A stretch of 64,000 bases of DNA from Acidimicrobiales bacterium (GTDB taxonomy: Bacteria > Actinomycetota > Acidimicrobiia > Acidimicrobiales > RAAP-2). The notes beneath the pieces are model-generated. The model was not told the origin of the DNA. It did not search any database and worked only from the letters and a program-made list of their open reading frames with translations. Numbering within the stretch: the stretch's first letter is position 1; every line of letters starts with the position of its first letter. This document shows, in pieces, positions 32,360-40,300 of the stretch. Position numbers and translations under genes: made by a program. Location: positions 1,540 through 65,539 of the forward strand of contig DASXZJ010000090.1 in the NCBI GenBank assembly GCA_036502025.1, given 5' to 3'.

Positions 32360-32524
32360 GAGTTCCTCCTGTCGCTAGGCACACGAATGGGCGATTGGGC
32401 CCGGCTGAGTATGCCCCGACGAGACGCGGGGGCGGAAATGACTTACCCTTTCCAGCGGGGAACCACCGCAACGGGCTTGACCGCAATGCAATAGCCCTAG
32501 GTGTTCGTGAGGAGATGTATCCGC

Positions 32525-33598
32525 ATGTCATTTGGATCAAAGTACGCCGCCGCAATTTCTCGATTTGGCGTCGTTCGATTGCTGAGCGCCTTTGTGCTCA
32601 CCGTCGGCGCGACACTCGGCACCTTCGCCCTCCTCGGCTCGGCTCCGGCCACCGCGGCCGGCGGTCCCGACGCCGTGTCCGGTTCTGCCTTCGGGGTGAA
32701 CGTCACGCTGTTGGGTAGCGCCATCGCCAGCCATCTCCCGTCGGTCACGTTGCCGGCGAGTGGTGCGGCCCAGTCGGCCAGCTTGCTGACCATCCCGACC
32801 AACCCGGTTATCTCGACCGGCCTGGCGTCGGTGGCGACGGCCGCGACCAACGCGACGCTGGCCACCGAAGTGGTCAACAGCTCCTCGGACCTCGCCAACC
32901 CGGCGCTCGTCAACACCGTCCTGCCCCTTCCGCTCGGGATCAGTTCGCTTCTCTCGGTTGACGCCGTTCACACGGTGTGCTCGTCAAGCGCCACCGGATC
33001 CACCGGCGGCACCACGGTGGTCAATCTGGTCATCGGCGGCATGGCGATTCCGGTCACCAGCGCCCTGAATCAGGTTCCGACCCTTCCGGCTGCCTTGTCG
33101 CCGCTCCTGAGCGTCGAGATCAACAAGCAGGTCGTCACCAACTCCGTTGGTGCGACGGGGATCACCGTTGACGGCGTCGTCATCTCCCTCCTGGGAGCCG
33201 TGGGCGGCGGGGCCGTCATCACCTTGTCTGAGAGCAAGTGCGGCGCCACCGGCCCCGACATCAACGCCACCCCGACCGTCACGGGCGTCAACCCCGGCAC
33301 CGGTCCGGCCGCCGGCGGCACGACGGTCACCCTCACCGGTACCGGCTTCCAGTGCGTCACCGGCGTGAAGTTCGGCACCACGACCGCCACCTTCACGGTG
33401 GTGAGCCCGACGCAGATCACGGCCACCTCCCCGCCGGGAGCCGCTGGCACCGTCGATGTGACGGTCACCAACTGCAACGGCACCAGTCCGACCGGAACCG
33501 CTGACCAGTTCACCTACACCGCGGGCAGCACCGGTAGTGGCGTCGTCCCGACGGCTCCGCAGTCGCCCGTGGTCAGCGCCGTCCCTGTGACGGGCTGA
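32525..33598 (+). CDS. secreted protein with a C-terminal IPT/TIG domain
   Basis: Signal-like LLSAFVLTVGATLGTFALLGSAPATAAG. IPT/TIG-like VTGVNPGTGPAAGGTTVTLTGTGFQCVTGVKFG...VTVTNCNGTS. GAGGAG lies 9 nt before ATG 32525. No LPXTG or other anchor is seen. Confidence 0.7.
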   Translation: MSFGSKYAAAISRFGVVRLLSAFVLTVGATLGTFALLGSAPATAAGGPDAVSGSAFGVNVTLLGSAIASHLPSVTLPASGAAQSASLLTIPTNPVISTGLASVATAATNATLATEVVNSSSDLANPALVNTVLPLPLGISSLLSVDAVHTVCSSSATGSTGGTTVVNLVIGGMAIPVTSALNQVPTLPAALSPLLSVEINKQVVTNSVGATGITVDGVVISLLGAVGGGAVITLSESKCGATGPDINATPTVTGVNPGTGPAAGGTTVTLTGTGFQCVTGVKFGTTTATFTVVSPTQITATSPPGAAGTVDVTVTNCNGTSPTGTADQFTYTAGSTGSGVVPTAPQSPVVSAVPVTG

Positions 33599-33644
33599 CC
33601 GTCGACGGCTGAAGCCACGAGGCGGCGCCATTCATGGCTGGTAT

Positions 33645-34430
33645 TTGATGTCACCTCGTGTTCTGAGACGAGCAGCGTGCGCCGTCGCGGCGATGTCCGT
33701 GACGGCGCTCGCGCTCACCTCATGCAGTAGCGGCCCTCAGGCATCGGGTCAGAGCGCCCACTCCAACGGGACCAAGTCGAGCGGTCTGCGACTGAGCGGC
33801 AATTCGACCCCGCCGCCCATCGCACCCGCCGGCTCGACCCTGCTGGCCACCCTCCACGGGGCGGTCCAGGGTTACGCGACCCCCAATGGCGCCAAGGCCG
33901 CCACCATCCCGGCGACCTGGCATGGCGCGGTGTCGACGCTTCCGGTGGTGACGGCCCAACCGGGTTGGGTCGACGTCCGGCTGGCGCAGCGACCCAACGA
34001 GTCCACAGCGTGGGTCCGCGTCGGTGACGTATCGCTGACCTCGACCCCCTACCAGATTGTGATCCACCTGGCGGCCACGCACCTCGACCTCTACAAGAGC
34101 GGTCACCTTGTCCTCTCGGCCCCGGCGGGTGTGGGGACGACGGCCGATCCCACCCCGACCGGTCACTACTTCGTGGCGTTCTTCGCCCAGCCGCCCAGCT
34201 CGGGCTACGGCCCCTTCGTCCTCGTCAGTTCGGCCCACTCGAACACGATCTCGGACTGGGAGAGTTCGGGAGATGCCCTGATGGCCATCCATGGTCCCCT
34301 CGGCGCCGACGCGCAGATCGGGATGTCCGGGAATCGGGTGTCACACGGCTGTGTTCGGCTCCACCTCTCCGACCTGGCGCAGCTGCGCGTGGTACCGGCC
34401 GGGAGCCCTATCGACGTGATGGCTTCCTAA
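33645..34430 (+). CDS. lipoprotein L,D-transpeptidase (YkuD family)
   Basis: Lipobox ALTSC. Catalytic region AIHGPLGADAQIGMSGNRVSHGCVRLH. Confidence 0.85.
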   Translation: MMSPRVLRRAACAVAAMSVTALALTSCSSGPQASGQSAHSNGTKSSGLRLSGNSTPPPIAPAGSTLLATLHGAVQGYATPNGAKAATIPATWHGAVSTLPVVTAQPGWVDVRLAQRPNESTAWVRVGDVSLTSTPYQIVIHLAATHLDLYKSGHLVLSAPAGVGTTADPTPTGHYFVAFFAQPPSSGYGPFVLVSSAHSNTISDWESSGDALMAIHGPLGADAQIGMSGNRVSHGCVRLHLSDLAQLRVVPAGSPIDVMAS

Positions 34431-36076
34431 AGGTCTCTGAGGGCCGGTGGCGGGTCGCCCATGAGCGGAACGCCCATCTCCTCGAGGGTCCTGGTCGGGT
34501 TCAGGGCCCGCACGATCCGGTCGCGCCCAGCCGCTTTGGCGGCGTAGAGGGCCTGATCGGCGGCCCGGAGCAGCGCCGTCGCCGTGTTTCCGTGTTCAGG
34601 CGAGGAGGCAATGCCGATCGAGAGTGTCGGCGGTGTCGGCCGTGCCGCCTTGCTCTTGAATGGGAAGTCCAACTCGGCCACGCACAGCTGCAATTCCTGC
34701 GCCCGTCGTTCGCCGTCGGCCCAGGCACAATTCGGAAGGATCACGGTGAACTCCTCCCCGCCGGAACGGCAGGGGACGTCACTCTCGCGGAAGAGCAGGA
34801 GGAGCACTTCCCCGACTGACTTCAGGACGGCGTCGCCAACTTCGTGGCCGTAGGTGTCGTTGAAATCCTTGAAGTGGTCGACATCGATCTGCAGGACGGT
34901 GAGTTGATCCTGGCTCCGGACGGCACTGCTCAACTCCCGCTTCAGGGTCTCCTCCATGTATCGGCGGTTGTACAAGTCGGTCAGGGGATCGCGGATCGAC
35001 AGGTTGCGGAGGGAATCGCGCAGAGTGAAGTTGGCCATGGACATCGCGATCTGCTCCGCCACGGTCAGGGCGAGTTGCTGGATGCTGCCATCCTGTGGAT
35101 CAGCGGAAGCCGCATCGTTGGCGCCGGCGTCGACGTCTGCTGCCAGCGCGATGCTAAGGACGCCGATCAGCTCGCCCTGGGCCAGCAGTGGGCGGCACAG
35201 CGCGGCCATGCCGGTCGATGGATCAAGGTGGGCACAGTAAAGGGCGCCGGGTTTCGAGACGTAGACGTGTCCCCTCCGCAACGCCCAACAGTCATGAGGC
35301 GAGAACGGCGCCTGACCCGATGCGTAATTGCCCCAGGCCGCCATCGTCTCGAGCACGTCCCGCGACGAGCTGAGGATGGAGACGGATCCACCCACCGGGA
35401 ACATCTTCTCGGCGGAGTGGGCGATGACCTCGTAGGCCTCATTCCTCTCCGCGCAGCTGTGCAACATGTCGGCCAGTTCGGCCAGCAGCACCAACTGGCT
35501 GATCGTCGAAGCCATGGCTCTCTTGGACGCTTCGTTTTGCTCGTTAGAGCGGGTCATCCGCTGGCGGAGTTCGACGATGGAGTACGCCACCAGCGCGCCG
35601 ATGAAGGCGAAGAACGCGATCTTGCGCACCCGGATCGTGTCGGTGACCCCAACCGGTAGATAGGTGGTCATTGTCGCTACGGCGACGACGGCCGCGACGA
35701 CCACGATGGATTTCCAGGGCTCGACATAGAGCGCGGTCCACACGATCGGCAGCAGCACGATGATGCCGATACCGGTCGTCGAACCTCCTGCCGCCAGCAT
35801 GAGGGCGAGCGCGTAGCCCGAGAAGAGGAGCGGGACGATGAGATCAACCCACGAGGGAAGGGACCCCCATGGGAGAAGGAAGCAGGCCGCCGTCGCCGCG
35901 AGCAGGAGCACGCTGATGACGGCATCGGTCGTCGACGCCGGGCCCGGCTCCAGGAACAAGCTGGCTTCGGCCACGGTCGCCACCAGGAGGAATGGAAGAG
36001 CCCGCACGGCCAGGCCCTCGCGCCGGAACGCGGTGCCCTTGAGCGGCGAACCGCCTCCTGCTGATCCAGTTCTCAC
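34427..36076 (-). CDS. membrane-anchored GAF-GGDEF diguanylate cyclase
   Basis: Multi-TM N-terminus. DPLTDLYNRRYM, VDHFKDFNDTYGHEVGD, and RESD (an RxxD I-site) 5 residues before GGEEF. Confidence 0.85.
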   Translation of the reverse strand: MRTGSAGGGSPLKGTAFRREGLAVRALPFLLVATVAEASLFLEPGPASTTDAVISVLLLAATAACFLLPWGSLPSWVDLIVPLLFSGYALALMLAAGGSTTGIGIIVLLPIVWTALYVEPWKSIVVVAAVVAVATMTTYLPVGVTDTIRVRKIAFFAFIGALVAYSIVELRQRMTRSNEQNEASKRAMASTISQLVLLAELADMLHSCAERNEAYEVIAHSAEKMFPVGGSVSILSSSRDVLETMAAWGNYASGQAPFSPHDCWALRRGHVYVSKPGALYCAHLDPSTGMAALCRPLLAQGELIGVLSIALAADVDAGANDAASADPQDGSIQQLALTVAEQIAMSMANFTLRDSLRNLSIRDPLTDLYNRRYMEETLKRELSSAVRSQDQLTVLQIDVDHFKDFNDTYGHEVGDAVLKSVGEVLLLLFRESDVPCRSGGEEFTVILPNCAWADGERRAQELQLCVAELDFPFKSKAARPTPPTLSIGIASSPEHGNTATALLRAADQALYAAKAAGRDRIVRALNPTRTLEEMGVPLMGDPPPALRDL

Positions 36077-36147
36077 GCGAGCCTGCCTCCCCCTGCCCTG
36101 CGAACCCTACGTTGGCCGGCGCCGGCGCGCTCACGATGCCTTCGCGC

Positions 36148-36189
36148 TTGACATAGCCACATAGCCAGGTACTATGCAATACATGGTAC
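36148..36189 (+). promoter_or_regulatory. near-consensus sigma-A type promoter (TTGACA-16 nt-TACTAT) with an overlapping imperfect inverted repeat, upstream of or overlapping the padR start
   Basis: TTGACA at 36148-36153 and TACTAT at 36170-36175. GTACTATG (36169-36176) and CATGGTAC (36182-36189) form an 8-bp inverted repeat with 1 mismatch and a 5-nt spacer. ATG 36183 lies about 7-8 nt after the -10 box, which is a leaderless geometry. Confidence 0.4.
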
Positions 36190-36527
36190 AGAGCAGGGCC
36201 CCGCAGCTGGCCCAGATGCGCAAGGGGGCACTGGAGTACTGCGTACTGGCCCTCCTCCGCGACGGCGAGCGCTACGGCTTCGAGCTGGTCAAAGAGCTCT
36301 CGGCCGCCGAACTGGTGACCAGCGAAGGCACCATCTACCCGCTCCTTTCCCGCTTGCGCCAGGACGGGGCCGTCGAGACGTCCTGGCGCGAATCGACCCA
36401 GGGCCCGCCCCGGCGGTACTACAAGCTCACCAGCGAGGGGAAAGCGTCGCTCGACATCTTCGCCACGGAGTGGCAGCGCTTCAGCCGCGCCGTGAGCGGG
36501 ATCCTCGAATCGGGGGGCGTGCGATGA
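36174..36527 (+). CDS. PadR family transcriptional regulator
   Basis: KGALEYCVLALLRDGERYGFELVKEL, EGTIYPLLSRLRQDGAVETSW, PRRYYKLTSEGK. The true start may be ATG 36183. Confidence 0.9.
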   Translation: MQYMVQSRAPQLAQMRKGALEYCVLALLRDGERYGFELVKELSAAELVTSEGTIYPLLSRLRQDGAVETSWRESTQGPPRRYYKLTSEGKASLDIFATEWQRFSRAVSGILESGGVR

Positions 36528-37222
36528 GCGAACCATGGTTGGGTTCCGAACTTGACGCCATGGTCAACGGTTATCTCAACGAGCTCTCCGATGCCCTCGG
36601 GAGACTGCCGGCCACCCAGCGTGACCACCTGGTCAGCGAGATCCGTGAGCACATCGCCGAGCTCCGGGCCGAACGCTCCGTCCGTGATCGCTCCGATATG
36701 GAGGCGCTCCTCAACCGCGTGGGCCTGCCCGAGGACATCGCCGCCGTGGCGCTCGAGGGCGAGGACGAGGAGTCCGATCCCGTGCTGGTTCCGCCGGCGC
36801 CGGCACTGCCCCTCGGACAGCGGCTGAACGTCTCGCGGCGCACGATGGTCGTCGTGGGGGCGGTCGCGGTGGCCTTCATCATCTTCGTGGTCGCGGTGGC
36901 CGGGGTCTTCAGCGATGGGTCATTTCACGGGTCATCGTCGGCGATCGTCACCAATCCCGCCGGAGCCGTGCTTCCCGGTCCGGTTCCCCCGAACCTCCCC
37001 GGCCCGCTGATGGGTACCGTGCCCAACGTGATCGGGGAGAGCCAGGCCGCCGCCGAGGAGACGATGATCGGCGCCGGCTGGAGCTACACCATCGAGGAGA
37101 CACCGTCGACTGCGGTGGCGGCGGGGACGGTCCTGGCCCAGGAGCCGGCGGCCGGCTCAACCGGGGTGCTCCGCCGGCCCGTCGTCATCATCGTTTCATC
37201 GGGGCCGACGTCGACCAGCTGA
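36524..37222 (+). CDS. single-pass membrane protein: DUF1700/HAAS-like cytoplasmic domain, TM, extracytoplasmic PASTA domain
   Basis: ATGA overlap with padR. YLNELSDALGRLPATQRDHLVSEIREHIAEL, then TM TMVVVGAVAVAFIIFVVAVAGVF. PASTA-like VPNVIGESQAAAEETMIGAGWSY...GTVLAQEPAAGSTGVLRRPVVIIVSSG. Confidence 0.75.
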   Translation: MSEPWLGSELDAMVNGYLNELSDALGRLPATQRDHLVSEIREHIAELRAERSVRDRSDMEALLNRVGLPEDIAAVALEGEDEESDPVLVPPAPALPLGQRLNVSRRTMVVVGAVAVAFIIFVVAVAGVFSDGSFHGSSSAIVTNPAGAVLPGPVPPNLPGPLMGTVPNVIGESQAAAEETMIGAGWSYTIEETPSTAVAAGTVLAQEPAAGSTGVLRRPVVIIVSSGPTSTS

Positions 37223-37342
37223 TCAGTGGTGGGGAGGGCGCTCCCGCTCCTGGCGCTCGGCCCAGCAGCGGTCGCAGTCCTCGCACGAGGCGTGGATGCC
37301 CGGGTGGCCGCAGCGCGGGCACCGGATCTCGGGCTCGGTCAC
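37223..37342 (-). CDS. candidate 39-codon Cys-rich (zinc-ribbon-like) mini-protein
   Basis: VTEPEIRCPRCGHPGIHASCEDCDRCWAERQERERPPHH. Its GTG shares one nt with the TAG stop of the upstream 1050-aa gene (TAGTG). It exactly fills the gap to the convergent gene. No homology support. Confidence 0.3.
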   Translation of the reverse strand: MTEPEIRCPRCGHPGIHASCEDCDRCWAERQERERPPHH

Positions 37343-40300
37343 TAACGGGCTGACCCTGTCGGCAGGATGGGCTCGGGCTCCGGTTGGGCGCCGTTGGAGC
37401 CGTTGCCGTCGGGCAAGGCCTCGAGGACGGCCTCGGGCACGGCGGGGCCCGAGCGCTTGGCCACCCCGGTGGTGAGCAAGCGGCCGATGACGGGGACCTC
37501 GGTCAGCGACTCGGCCCGCATGATCTGTACCGTCACCGGCACGAACTGCTCGGCCGAGTCGAAGACGATGTAGCGCGGGAGCCACTTGGGCTCGTACTTG
37601 GCGTTGAAGCGCCACAGTGTCTCGATCTGCAGGACGCCGGACAGCCGGCGCAGGGCCCAGCGCTCGACCCGTTGGGTGACGCCGTCGCCCGATTCGCCGT
37701 CGAGGATGGATCGCATAGCGGCGAAGTTGAGGCTCAATCCCTTCATGCCGCGTTCCTTCAAGTGGGTGATCGTCGAGCACAGCGCGAAGTCGAGCAGCCC
37801 GTTGGGATGCTCAGCCGGATCACGGCGCATGAGGTCCAACGAGAAGCCGCCGATCGCCGGCGACGGGACGAACTGGCACATGGCCACCGGAGCGCCGTCA
37901 GGACCCTCGACCAACGTGAGGAGGAGCCCGGTGTCGCGGCTGTCGAACAGCCGCCCGAGCATCATGGAGAAACCGCGCTCCTGGTCGCCGCGCCGGCTCT
38001 TGGCCATCAGTTCGACCAGCCGGGCGGCATCAGCCGTACTCAGGCGCGCCGGATCCAGGAAGCGCACGGTGTAGCCGTAGCGGGCGACGCGGTTCACGGC
38101 CTGGCGCAGGCCCTTCATCTTGCCGCCCTCGAGCGAGAACGTCCGGGGGTCGACCACCGCTTCGTCCCCGATGTAGAGGAAGCGCATGCCCGAGGCCTGA
38201 TAGGTCGGGAGCCACTCCTCGCCCGCCGCCATGACGCCCAGGCCCCACCCGTTCGCATCGACGTGACGCCGGAAGGCATCCCAAACGTGCGCCCGCTCGG
38301 TGAAGGGGCCGATGGGATCGGGTGAGACGAGGCACACGCCACCGAACACGGCATAGGCCACCATGGAGTCACGGTGGAAGAACCATTGCTTGTCGTCACG
38401 CAAGGCGAAGTAATCCAGTGTGCCGGTGCCGTGACGCCGCACGATGTCGCGGGCCCGCAGTTCGGCGGCCCGACGGCCCACCGCAGCCCGCCCGGTCGAC
38501 AGCTGGCGATCGACTACCGGCCGGGTGAGCAGGTAGAGGGCGAACACGATGAGGGTGATCCCCACCGCCAGGAGGCTCCACGACGCGTAGCGGTTGATGT
38601 GGACCGGGAAGCGGACCGCCTGGATGCCGATCAGGCGCTCGGCCGACCCCAGGAGCACGTTGGGCCAATAGGGCAGCTGATGGTGGTGCACCCGAGCGGC
38701 CACCTCGACGGCGATGAACGACCCGACTGTCGCCGCGACCCCGCCCAGGGCCAGGATGAGGAACGCGGAGAAGATGGTCCCCTGCTCGGTGGCGGCCCGG
38801 AAGCGCTCCCGTTGGACGACAAGGAGGACGAGCACAGCCGCACATATCAGTAGGTTGAACACGTCGGCGGCATGGATGACGTGTAACGCCAGCGTGGCCG
38901 AGAGGAGGCCCACGGCGACCATCCACGAGCGACGCTGGCCCCTGAGCACCCCGCGAGACAGCATGATCATCCCGATGCCTGAGATGGCCACCAGCGCGCC
39001 GGCGGCCTGGGACACCTCAACGGGCAGGTACTGCGCGATGAGGTGGAGGTGGGTGCGCACGGGGGAGGTGACCGCGGAGAGAAGGTCGATGAATCCGGCC
39101 ACGAAGAGCGAGACCGCCGCCAGTCGGCGGATGCGGCGCACCCTGATCCGATCGGCCGCCACCTCGGGGGCGGGCGGCCATGACGAGCCACTGGGCCAGC
39201 TGGCCACCAACTCCGGGTGGAGGTCAGCCGCTCTGGTGCGCCCCTTCACCACCGAGTCGTGGGTGACCAGACGCTCGCCCATGGTGGCCAAGGGCAGGTC
39301 GGCCTCGGCCTGCATCAGGCGCACGTGCAGATCGGCGCCGGTCTCGATCTCCAGCAGTGACATCTGCCGGTGATGCAGGAAGGTGGGAGGGAGCCCGAGC
39401 CGGCCCCGGTGCTCGTGCACCACCTCGGAAGTGGCGCCGGGACAGGCGAAGAAGCCGACGTCGAGATGGGTGAGCTCGGCGACGAGGGCCCCGCCTACGA
39501 CCACCCCGGCCGCCCCGACCTCGACCGCGGCCCGGGTGACGTCGAGCACGTCGACGCCGTCGATGCAGAGGAGCGAGTGCGCGGTCGGACGCGTGCCCTG
39601 GCTGCGCGTCCCGCCCGAGGCCCACGGCGTAGGGAGACCGTCACCGCCGAGGGCGCGCCAGATGCCGCGCGAGGTCATCGCGACCACCAGGGCCAGGATG
39701 AGGAGGAGCGCCACCGCAATGGCCAGGGTCACCAGGAACCGGGAGAACCATGACGCGTTGTACGCGTGCTGCAGGGCGCGCTGCTGGCGCGGCGATCGGA
39801 ACAGGTGGCCCAGGCCGTCGACCACGAACTCGAGTCGCAACAGGAGGGCTACCCCGGCCAATACCAACGGTGGTGCCCACAGATAGCGGCGCAGCCGGCG
39901 ATAGAGCAACCGGGAGGTGACGAACCGGCGGGCCAGGCGCGGGTCGTCGAGCCGTTCGAGGCCGACGAGCCAGGGTCGCTCGTCACTGGGCCCGGCGTCG
40001 ATGGGCGGGTTGGTGTCCGGCCGCGCCTGGCCCGAACGCACCAGCACGGTCCGCGTTCCGGTACCGGTCACACACTGCAGATCGGCACCGCCCACGATTT
40101 CGACCCCGAGACGAGCCAGGGCCCCGTTGAGCTCGCCGGCCTCGGCCGTCGGCGCGCCCAACGCAATGACCCGTGAGTCAGGCCGGGCGGCGAAGTTCCC
40201 GAGCGCGCCGGTCAGCTCGCCGTGGGCCGCCAACGCGTCGGCGGGCCCGGGCGATTCGTCGCAACCGGGAGCGATGAGCTGGCCGCAGAGCACGACGATG

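Follow-up and report, generated by a model that had tools for sequence, protein, structure and literature searches.

How might a bacterium pass the state of its cell wall on to a promoter without the help of a kinase? This question is raised by two neighboring genes in a 64,000-nucleotide stretch of DNA from an Acidimicrobiales bacterium (GCA_036502025.1, contig DASXZJ010000090.1, forward-strand positions 1,540 to 65,539), hereafter termed the window. The region in question, 36148-37222, holds two genes on the same strand: padR, which encodes a PadR-family regulator, and directly after it a gene for a membrane protein of 232 residues. A reading made from the letters alone (the sequence-only reading) had proposed that the pair forms a kinase-independent cell-wall sensor, in which occupancy of an extracytoplasmic PASTA domain controls a PadR repressor. 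The analysis described below points to a self-contained, autoregulated two-gene cassette of the HAAS-PadR type, in which the sensor is a single extracytoplasmic PASTA domain, and on balance this account is the probable one. A broader proposal is put forward more tentatively, with rather less than even confidence: that the cassette represents a third class of PASTA protein besides penicillin-binding proteins (PBPs) and Hanks kinases, in which a PASTA-tipped single-pass protein gates PadR by stoichiometric capture through its HAAS domain, with no phosphorylation or proteolysis.

The features of the cassette, in order of position, are given here.

36148-36153, plus strand: -35 hexamer TTGACA, found in the promoter scan and invariant in 12 homologous upstream regions.
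36169-36189, no strand assigned: putative PadR operator, the 21-bp palindrome GTACTATGCAATACATGGTAC, which spans the -10 hexamer and the probable transcript start (+1) and ATG.
36170-36175, plus strand: -10 hexamer TACTAT, inside the operator, found in the promoter scan and invariant in the upstream alignment.
36174-36527 by the first ATG of the open reading frame (ORF) finder, or 36183-36527 by the preferred start, plus strand: padR, from the ORF list.
36524-36527, plus strand: ATGA tetranucleotide, which holds the ATG of the membrane-protein gene and the stop of padR, read directly in the sequence.
36524-37222, plus strand: gene for the HAAS-transmembrane-linker-PASTA membrane protein (232 residues).
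36533-36769, plus strand: predicted cytoplasmic HAAS domain, residues 4-82, helical (Pfam, model and conservation).
36836-36907, plus strand: single transmembrane helix, residues about 105-128 (hydropathy maximum 3.03; model helix 105-128, with a predicted local distance difference test score, pLDDT, of about 60).
36908-37009, plus strand: Pro-rich juxtamembrane linker of variable length, residues 129-162 (low-confidence model, gap-rich alignment).
37010-37198, plus strand: PASTA domain, predicted to be extracytoplasmic, residues 163-225 (Pfam, model and Foldseek).

The membrane protein carries most of the argument. The sequence-only reading had described it as a chain of four parts, and the peptide strings that it quoted are present; all four parts are confirmed by Pfam, by an AlphaFold2 model built on 25 homologues, and by Foldseek. 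Profile searches recover both of the expected domains. Pfam places HAAS (PF22564) at residues 17-74 (2.4e-11, 44.3 bits against a cut-off of 27) and PASTA (PF03793) at residues 165-213 (1.2e-9, 38.5 bits against a cut-off of 23.2), and no kinase, PBP or other domain was found by Pfam in the 232 residues. The product is identical to GenBank entry HEY3843700.1, [quoted passage not shown], and in automatic annotation proteins of this kind already bear the label "PASTA domain-containing" or "HAAS domain-containing".

In the model, the HAAS domain consists of helices at residues 4-27, 30-50, 56-66 and 69-82, with pLDDT above 90, and the Pfam match begins within the first of these, at residue 17. 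The helix at 56-66 breaks at G67-L68-P69 (nucleotides 36722-36730) and resumes at 69-82, and G67 and P69 are invariant in the 25 sequences. This break, with its invariant Gly and Pro, matches the kinked GxP helix that defines HAAS (PMC11237479). In addition, when the PASTA family's HAAS profile is compared by hhalign with the N-termini of PspC-type partners, the match has 92.9% probability (E 3.8e-7).

The protein has no N-terminal signal peptide and one transmembrane helix. The N-terminal flank of this helix (RLNVSRR) contains 3 lysine or arginine residues and the C-terminal flank none, and in 24 of the 25 homologues the flanks contain 3-6 and 0-3, respectively. A single transmembrane helix with this positive-inside bias predicts an N-in/C-out arrangement, with HAAS in the cytoplasm and PASTA outside. 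The predicted topology therefore agrees with the earlier placing of the C-terminus outside the membrane. The linker between helix and PASTA domain is modelled with pLDDT below 50 at residues 130-155, where the family alignment is gap-rich and unconserved.

Residues 163-225 are modelled as a compact alpha/beta PASTA fold with pLDDT above 92. When this fold was compared with the PDB by Foldseek, the first 25 ranks were all PASTA domains. The best match is PASTA3 of PknB (3OUV; probability 1.0, target-normalised TM-score 0.87, root-mean-square deviation 1.4 Å), followed by PASTA2-4 of PknB, PASTA4 of StkP, and PrkC, and then by PBP1, PonA2 and PBP2x, all with probability 1.0; the deviations for 3OUV, 5E12, 5NOD and 3PY9 are 1.4-1.8 Å. 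By profile, the family matches PASTA1 of PknB best (8e-11). The invariant residues of the domain are P167, G171, A177, G201, V203, P208 and G211. Moreover, residues 105-230 align to the transmembrane-linker-PASTA1 part (model positions 330-432) of an NCBIfam model of Stk1-family PASTA kinases with E 4e-8. The protein is not a member of that group, as it scores 32.8 bits on the NCBIfam PknB_PASTA_kin model, for which the cut-off is 450.

It had been stated that PASTA domains are known essentially from PBPs and Ser/Thr kinases. This holds for characterised proteins, but proteins with PASTA domains only are abundant; they have as many as 32 repeats and neither a kinase nor a PBP domain. In a whole-protein profile search, 46,606 library representatives reached E<=0.001, and the best 150 of these are almost all PASTA proteins of 6-34 repeats. 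Examples (P0054, P0056, P0067 and P0107) have 680-2190 residues and 8-32 PASTA domains in tandem; they lack kinase and PBP domains, and some have EF-hand-type C-termini.

The same architecture recurs in other genomes. A word-indexed search gave 53 homologues of the window protein (family 1), and about 48 of these clusters carry HAAS and PASTA; two of the homologues bear an organism name, and both are Acidimicrobiales. A scan of GTDB species representatives gave 8 loci, all in metagenome-assembled genomes of Acidimicrobiaceae or Acidimicrobiales. A second family, of about 38 clusters and about 270 residues, combines HAAS with two PASTA domains. All members of either family come from uncultured Acidimicrobiales or related metagenome-assembled genomes and metagenomes. 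The HAAS-only alignment, used as a word-indexed query, gave 7 short fragments and no new architectures. A PadR gene lies directly upstream in 15 of 15 distinct loci (12 of the first family and 3 of the second). In the second family, the two genes are separated by 12 nucleotides with GGAGG (L134, L135) or overlap by 8 nucleotides (L136), and a related operator, CTA(C/G)TATG-N5-CATGGTAC, is present. PadR is 81-90% identical to its counterpart in the window, HAAS 63-79% and PASTA 40-47%, a gradient of constraint that is in keeping with a cytoplasmic interface that is conserved and an attached sensor that evolves faster.

This recurrence bears on the possibility that the pair is non-functional or an artefact, whether through domains fused by chance, through an ORF that was called wrongly, or as the decayed remnant of a PASTA kinase beside an unrelated PadR gene. 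Homologues known solely from metagenomes and metagenome-assembled genomes lend it some support, as does one locus that resembles the product of a sequencing indel. In this locus, from an Acidimicrobiaceae metagenome-assembled genome (L008, 5659-6723), padR and the HAAS-PASTA gene share one frame (...DGGGRA-MSDVPL...), which is caused by a one-nucleotide difference in a run of five G. The apparent fusion was also considered as Rosetta-stone evidence for the pairing and was rejected, being a probable homopolymer indel. On the other side, the full-length architecture is kept in about 86 clusters at 90% identity across the two families; 12 loci share the gene order, the overlap, the promoter and the operator; the protein is modelled with confidence; and the 5′ codons of padR vary mainly at third positions. 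An artefact is thus very improbable, and the conservation data effectively refute it.

As the sequence-only reading had noted, the padR stop and the next ATG overlap in the ATGA at 36524-36527. This 4-nucleotide overlap is kept across the loci of the first family, with a GTGA variant in one (L007), and padR is predicted to be translationally coupled to the membrane-protein gene. A scan of 35900-37500 found no promoter or terminator between the two genes, and together with the conserved overlap this suggests that they are co-transcribed. The same interval contains no terminator-like site. No Rfam family reaches its gathering score on either strand of the whole window, so that no riboswitch or small RNA appears to be involved.

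The cassette has a promoter that appears to be of the sigma-70 type, TTGACA-16-TACTAT, which matches at 10 of 12 positions and is the only one in 35900-37500. The inverted repeat that had been pointed out at 36169-36189 is real: it is the 21-bp palindrome GTACTATGCAATACATGGTAC, with 8 of the 10 positions in its arms complementary. It was checked by hand and by pattern search, since its mismatches split the arms into seeds of at most 4 nucleotides and hide it from a repeat finder. The consensus of the operator family is GTACTATGyAwTrCATGGTAC. Across 12 aligned upstream regions, the -35 hexamer does not vary and the palindrome varies at three central positions only, while its flanks drift and the sequence upstream of the -35 hexamer is unconserved. 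The evidence for an operator at padR's own promoter is therefore a comparative footprint, that is, a predicted site. The promoter spacer contains a tandem CATAGCCA-CATAGCCA at 36152-36167, and several relatives (L003, L008 and L010) have repeated GTGAC/TGACA-like units within the 40-60 bp upstream of the -35 hexamer; these tandem units could be sites for a second regulator or could be due to chance.

The position of the promoter also bears on the start of padR. The ATG at 36183 lies 7 nucleotides after the -10 hexamer, so that the mRNA would be leaderless and PadR would have 114 residues, while the ATG at 36174, chosen by the ORF finder, would fall upstream of the transcript start. Among the 12 loci, the codons at 36186-36215 differ mainly at third positions (CAG/CAA, GCC/GCG), which indicates that the stretch from 36183 to Met-12 of the 114-residue product (Met-15 of the 117-residue ORF) is translated. 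The start is thus likely to be the leaderless ATG at 36183 and not that at 36174.

Pfam identifies the regulator as PadR (PF03551, 7e-22). Among solved structures, the PadR-family protein 5H20, of 111 residues, is the closest (1.3e-26); residues 10-107 align to it and also to the LmrR entries 3F8B and 3F8C. The 114-residue protein is accordingly predicted to be a single-domain, LmrR-type winged-helix repressor, with a winged helix-turn-helix and one C-terminal helix. Its match to the BlaI family is weak (Penicillinase_R, E 0.18). The C-terminal helix contains an invariant Trp, W97, which may be the equivalent of the drug-binding Trp96 of LmrR.

The palindrome is found once in the window, even when 3 mismatches are allowed (0.01 copies expected), and each of the 13 fetched Acidimicrobiales loci has a single copy in the same position. 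A scan with a position weight matrix found no second site above 12 of 42 bits in 252 kb (the window and the loci). The MprF-like, Lnt, GGDEF and L,D-transpeptidase genes of the window were rejected as direct targets of PadR because no further copy of the operator lies beside them.

That the sole operator within 64 kb is the operon's own also suits a different explanation, in which the membrane protein is a regulated effector and not a sensor, and PadR senses the cue itself, for example a small molecule at the dimer interface, as in LmrR/PadR. Once derepressed, the PASTA protein would have its effect at the envelope, where it might bind or shield lipid II or nascent peptidoglycan, or serve as a scaffold for wall enzymes. 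A single-domain PadR of the LmrR type with W97 in its C-terminal helix is in keeping with this explanation, and in Listeria the regulators LstR and LltR act chiefly on the operons that encode them, the DUF1700 protein Lmo0600 being the cause of the derepression phenotype (PMC6624303). However, the HAAS domain is the best-conserved part of the membrane protein and is always found with PadR, across families and sensors, which would be hard to explain if it were a passenger. The lone 60-residue PASTA domain on its flexible linker is also without obvious effector activity. For these reasons the effector explanation is judged unlikely, and the roles of sensor and effector need not be mutually exclusive.

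The sensor account gains from what the operator reveals about other systems. Metagenome contigs were scanned with the operator pattern alone, which gave at least 120 loci (L014-L133). A PadR homologue, 37-54% identical, is present in 81 of these (at least 120) loci and, among the matches listed, the site precedes the PadR gene by less than 150 bp in 73 of the 81. Among the matches listed, the loci have a GC (guanine plus cytosine) content between 0.29 and 0.72, and the median is 0.41. In these metagenomes the palindrome has the form GTACTATGyAwTrCATAGTAC and precedes the PadR genes of HAAS-PspC-LiaF-TM-Toastrack operons; among the matches listed, the genes that follow encode PspC in 48 of 49 cases, LiaI-LiaF-TM in 30, Toastrack in 21 and HAAS in 18. 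In the other 39 of the 120 listed loci, no PadR homologue was detectable with the high-GC query; PadR genes of greater divergence, or further members of the regulon, may be present there. The palindrome is thus a putative cross-phylum PadR operator. Together, the shared palindrome, the HAAS profile match and the similarity of the PadR proteins would place the window system in the PadR clade of the HAAS-PspC systems, with the same predicted DNA specificity.

The HAAS-PadR dyad was defined computationally by Ravi et al. (2024, mSystems) and proposed as an alternative to two-component systems (PMC11237479). The GxP groove of HAAS has been proposed to contact PadR (PMC11237479; restated in 10.1101/2025.01.14.632903). 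The traits of the dyad that are present here are the HAAS profile match, the helix kinked at GxP, the adjacent standalone PadR gene, and the N-terminal position of HAAS before a transmembrane and sensor module. The window cassette thus appears to be a HAAS-PadR dyad in which the PspC/Toastrack sensor has been replaced by a transmembrane-linker-PASTA module like that of PASTA kinases. The sequence-only reading had stated that no characterised example of this architecture was known. None was found in a literature search, so that this part stands, but the kind of system was already known, having been defined in 2024. PASTA is not mentioned in the text of PMC11237479 or in one of its supplementary files. 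What would be new is therefore the use of PASTA as the sensor of a HAAS-PadR dyad, and not the dyad itself.

How would such a cassette work? At rest, a PadR dimer would sit on the palindrome at -10/+1 and repress its own leaderless operon, along with any operator-bearing promoters elsewhere. The PASTA domain would engage a ligand derived from peptidoglycan, whether an un-crosslinked stem peptide, a muropeptide or lipid II, as in PknB, PrkC and StkP; it has been reported that the PASTA domains of PknB bind lipid II containing meso-diaminopimelic acid (PMC6428115). The ligand would alter the conformation or oligomeric state of the membrane protein, after which the HAAS domain would capture PadR through the groove at the GxP kink and hold it at the membrane. 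The promoter would be derepressed upon this capture, and coupled 1:1 synthesis of repressor and anti-repressor would reset the system. We infer both ligand sensing by PASTA and capture of PadR by HAAS. Such a protein may in effect be a PASTA kinase whose kinase domain has been swapped for a repressor-binding domain, and it may equally be seen as a PspC-type HAAS-PadR system whose membrane-stress sensor has been swapped for a cell-wall sensor.

The direction of control proposed here draws on Listeria. Inactivation of LltR or LstR derepresses their own operons about 100-150-fold, including that of the DUF1700/HAAS protein Lmo0600 (PMC6624303), which implies that the basal state is repression. 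As this derepression occurs without stress, the basal state would be a DNA-bound repressor, and capture on signal is preferred over release on signal. The wording used for HAAS-PadR in 10.1101/2025.01.14.632903 is of release on stimulus.

Several points weigh against the proposed mechanism. The HAAS-PadR dyad model is itself computational, and the binding of HAAS to PadR is a prediction. Control could run in either direction, by capture or by release on signal. In PknB, the ligand residues lie in the linker between PASTA3 and PASTA4, and binding there mainly controls localisation (PMC6428115); these residues cannot be mapped onto the lone PASTA domain of the window, which is 25-30% identical. 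The PASTA domain here is single and most like PASTA1 of PknB, and ligand binding is not universal among PASTA domains. In B. subtilis, the PASTA domains of PBP2B strengthen the interaction with DivIB (PMC7654742). Finally, the operator is found only at the operon's own promoter in the 64 kb of the window and within ±6-8 kb of the 15 loci, and in the window and these loci no output gene is visible besides the sensor itself.

The results on PknB and PBP2B also suit a variant of the same HAAS-PadR relay, in which PASTA is a localisation or protein-protein interaction module and not a sensor of ligand occupancy. PASTA would then anchor the protein where the wall is synthesised, or attach it to a PBP or divisome protein or to a PASTA kinase, and PadR would follow the cell cycle or the state of assembly and not the concentration of free ligand. 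Ligand binding by the extracytoplasmic domain of PknB governs localisation, and StkP's terminal PASTA domain has a region that binds LytB (the latter discussed in PMC6428115, the source of the former). The strengthened binding of PBP2B to DivIB (PMC7654742) points the same way. Moreover, PASTA is the fastest-evolving part of the protein, as would be expected of a co-evolving protein interface. Against this, no conserved partner gene is linked to the cassette, and the two families lie in different genomic contexts. Most of the invariant PASTA positions are Gly or Pro, which are inferred to form the core of the fold and are neutral either way. This variant is accordingly regarded as doubtful, and sensing of a wall ligand by PASTA is retained as the preferred account.

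It had also been argued that the cassette sits among envelope genes, and this argument turned out to be weak. The loci of the first family share a block of synteny that runs from nuoLMN through a variable region to the padR-HAAS/PASTA pair, and on to a convergent MprF-like gene, a HAD gene, Lnt and heme-biosynthesis genes. In the window, the interval from nuoN to padR (32501-36076) contains a TIG/IPT-domain surface protein, a YkuD L,D-transpeptidase and a divergent GGDEF membrane protein, and relatives have other genes there, such as PNPOx, hypothetical proteins and zinc-ribbon proteins. This interval thus appears to be a variable insertion hotspot within an otherwise syntenic block. The L,D-transpeptidase and GGDEF genes belong to this variable region and are absent from relatives, while the adjacency of the MprF-like, HAD and Lnt genes reflects vertically inherited nuo...hem synteny, the MprF-like gene being convergent and no other operator being nearby. 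The sister family with two PASTA domains is found in contexts unrelated to those of the first family. The conserved entity is therefore, as far as gene order can tell, the two-gene unit and not a neighborhood of envelope genes.

Insertions point the same way for the gene next door. A HisKA_3 kinase and a GerE response regulator (L004, 9464-12150) or a TetR regulator (L005, 4407-5018) stand between the PadR cassette and the MprF-like gene in two relatives, which indicates that the cassette and the MprF-like gene are separable.

Next to the cassette, on the minus strand at 37223-37342, lies an unannotated Cys-rich ORF of 39 residues, VTEPEIRCPRCGHPGIHASCEDCDRCWAERQERERPPHH. Its stop (TCA on the plus strand) abuts the TGA stop of the HAAS-PASTA gene at 37220-37225, giving TGATCA, and with zero intergenic distance the convergent transcripts would overlap. 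Its GTG start and the TAG stop of the MprF-like gene share one nucleotide (TAGTG). The ORF is present in 12 of the 13 fetched Acidimicrobiales loci, with 62-76% identity and the motif CPRCGH...SC.xCDRCW..QQRE.PPHH, and it adjoins the MprF-like gene wherever the position of that gene is recorded. It was rejected as a member of the cassette, since in L004 it stays with the MprF-like gene, 3.6 kb from padR. The product resembles a zinc-ribbon micro-protein and would be a partner of the MprF-like gene.

If the proposed mechanism is true, Actinomycetota have a kinase-independent, one-step transmembrane path from the state of the cell wall to transcription, and the idea of HAAS-PadR as an "alternative two-component system" extends from membrane-stress sensors to cell-wall sensors. 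The cassette is also a compact test system, with two genes, one promoter, one 21-bp operator and a sensor with well-studied ligand candidates. Its main value lies in testing whether HAAS domains bind and release PadR, which is a question for the whole class. The cross-phylum operator, in turn, is a reusable handle for predicting the regulons of this PadR clade.

The closest known systems resemble the window cassette in some ways and differ from it in others. The HAAS-PspC-LiaI-LiaF-TM-Toastrack dyads share an upstream standalone PadR gene, an N-terminal HAAS domain with a GxP kink, the same palindrome, and PadR proteins that are 37-54% identical. They differ in the sensor, which has one transmembrane helix and PASTA in the window cassette and consists of PspC, multi-spanning or Toastrack modules in the dyads; the predicted input is the cell wall in the former and membrane stress in the latter. 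In Listeria monocytogenes, the pairs LltR (Lmo0599)-Lmo0600 and LstR-Lmo0421 likewise have a PadR protein that autoregulates an operon with a DUF1700/HAAS-type membrane protein, and the regulon is essentially that operon. However, their partners are multi-spanning (FtsW/RodA-like, or proteins with DUF1700 and DUF4097) and have no PASTA, and the host is a Firmicute and not a member of the Acidimicrobiales.

The kinases PknB, PrkC, StkP and PrkA resemble the window protein from the membrane outward. They are N-in, single-pass proteins with a juxtamembrane linker, an extracytoplasmic PASTA region and a presumed cell-wall input; their PASTA fold superposes at 1.4-1.8 Å, and the transmembrane-linker-PASTA part of the window protein aligns to the Stk1-family model. 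Unlike these kinases, the window protein has no kinase domain, and it and its relatives have one or two PASTA domains, depending on the family, compared to three to five. Stoichiometric binding of a repressor would serve as the output in the window cassette, in place of phosphorylation in the kinases.

Two further systems share parts of the proposed logic. In BlaR1-BlaI and MecR1-MecI, a membrane sensor whose extracellular domain binds cell wall or beta-lactams is co-encoded with a winged-helix repressor that autoregulates at a palindromic operator. BlaR1 has a cytoplasmic zinc-protease domain, by which it inactivates BlaI through proteolysis, and its sensor is a PBP-like acyl-enzyme, whereas the window protein has no protease domain and its sensor is PASTA and not PBP-like. 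In Mlc-PtsG, whether a soluble repressor stays at the membrane depends on a membrane protein's state, the signal being the phosphorylation state in sugar transport. The sequestration of a repressor proposed for the window cassette would follow the same logic, with unrelated protein families.

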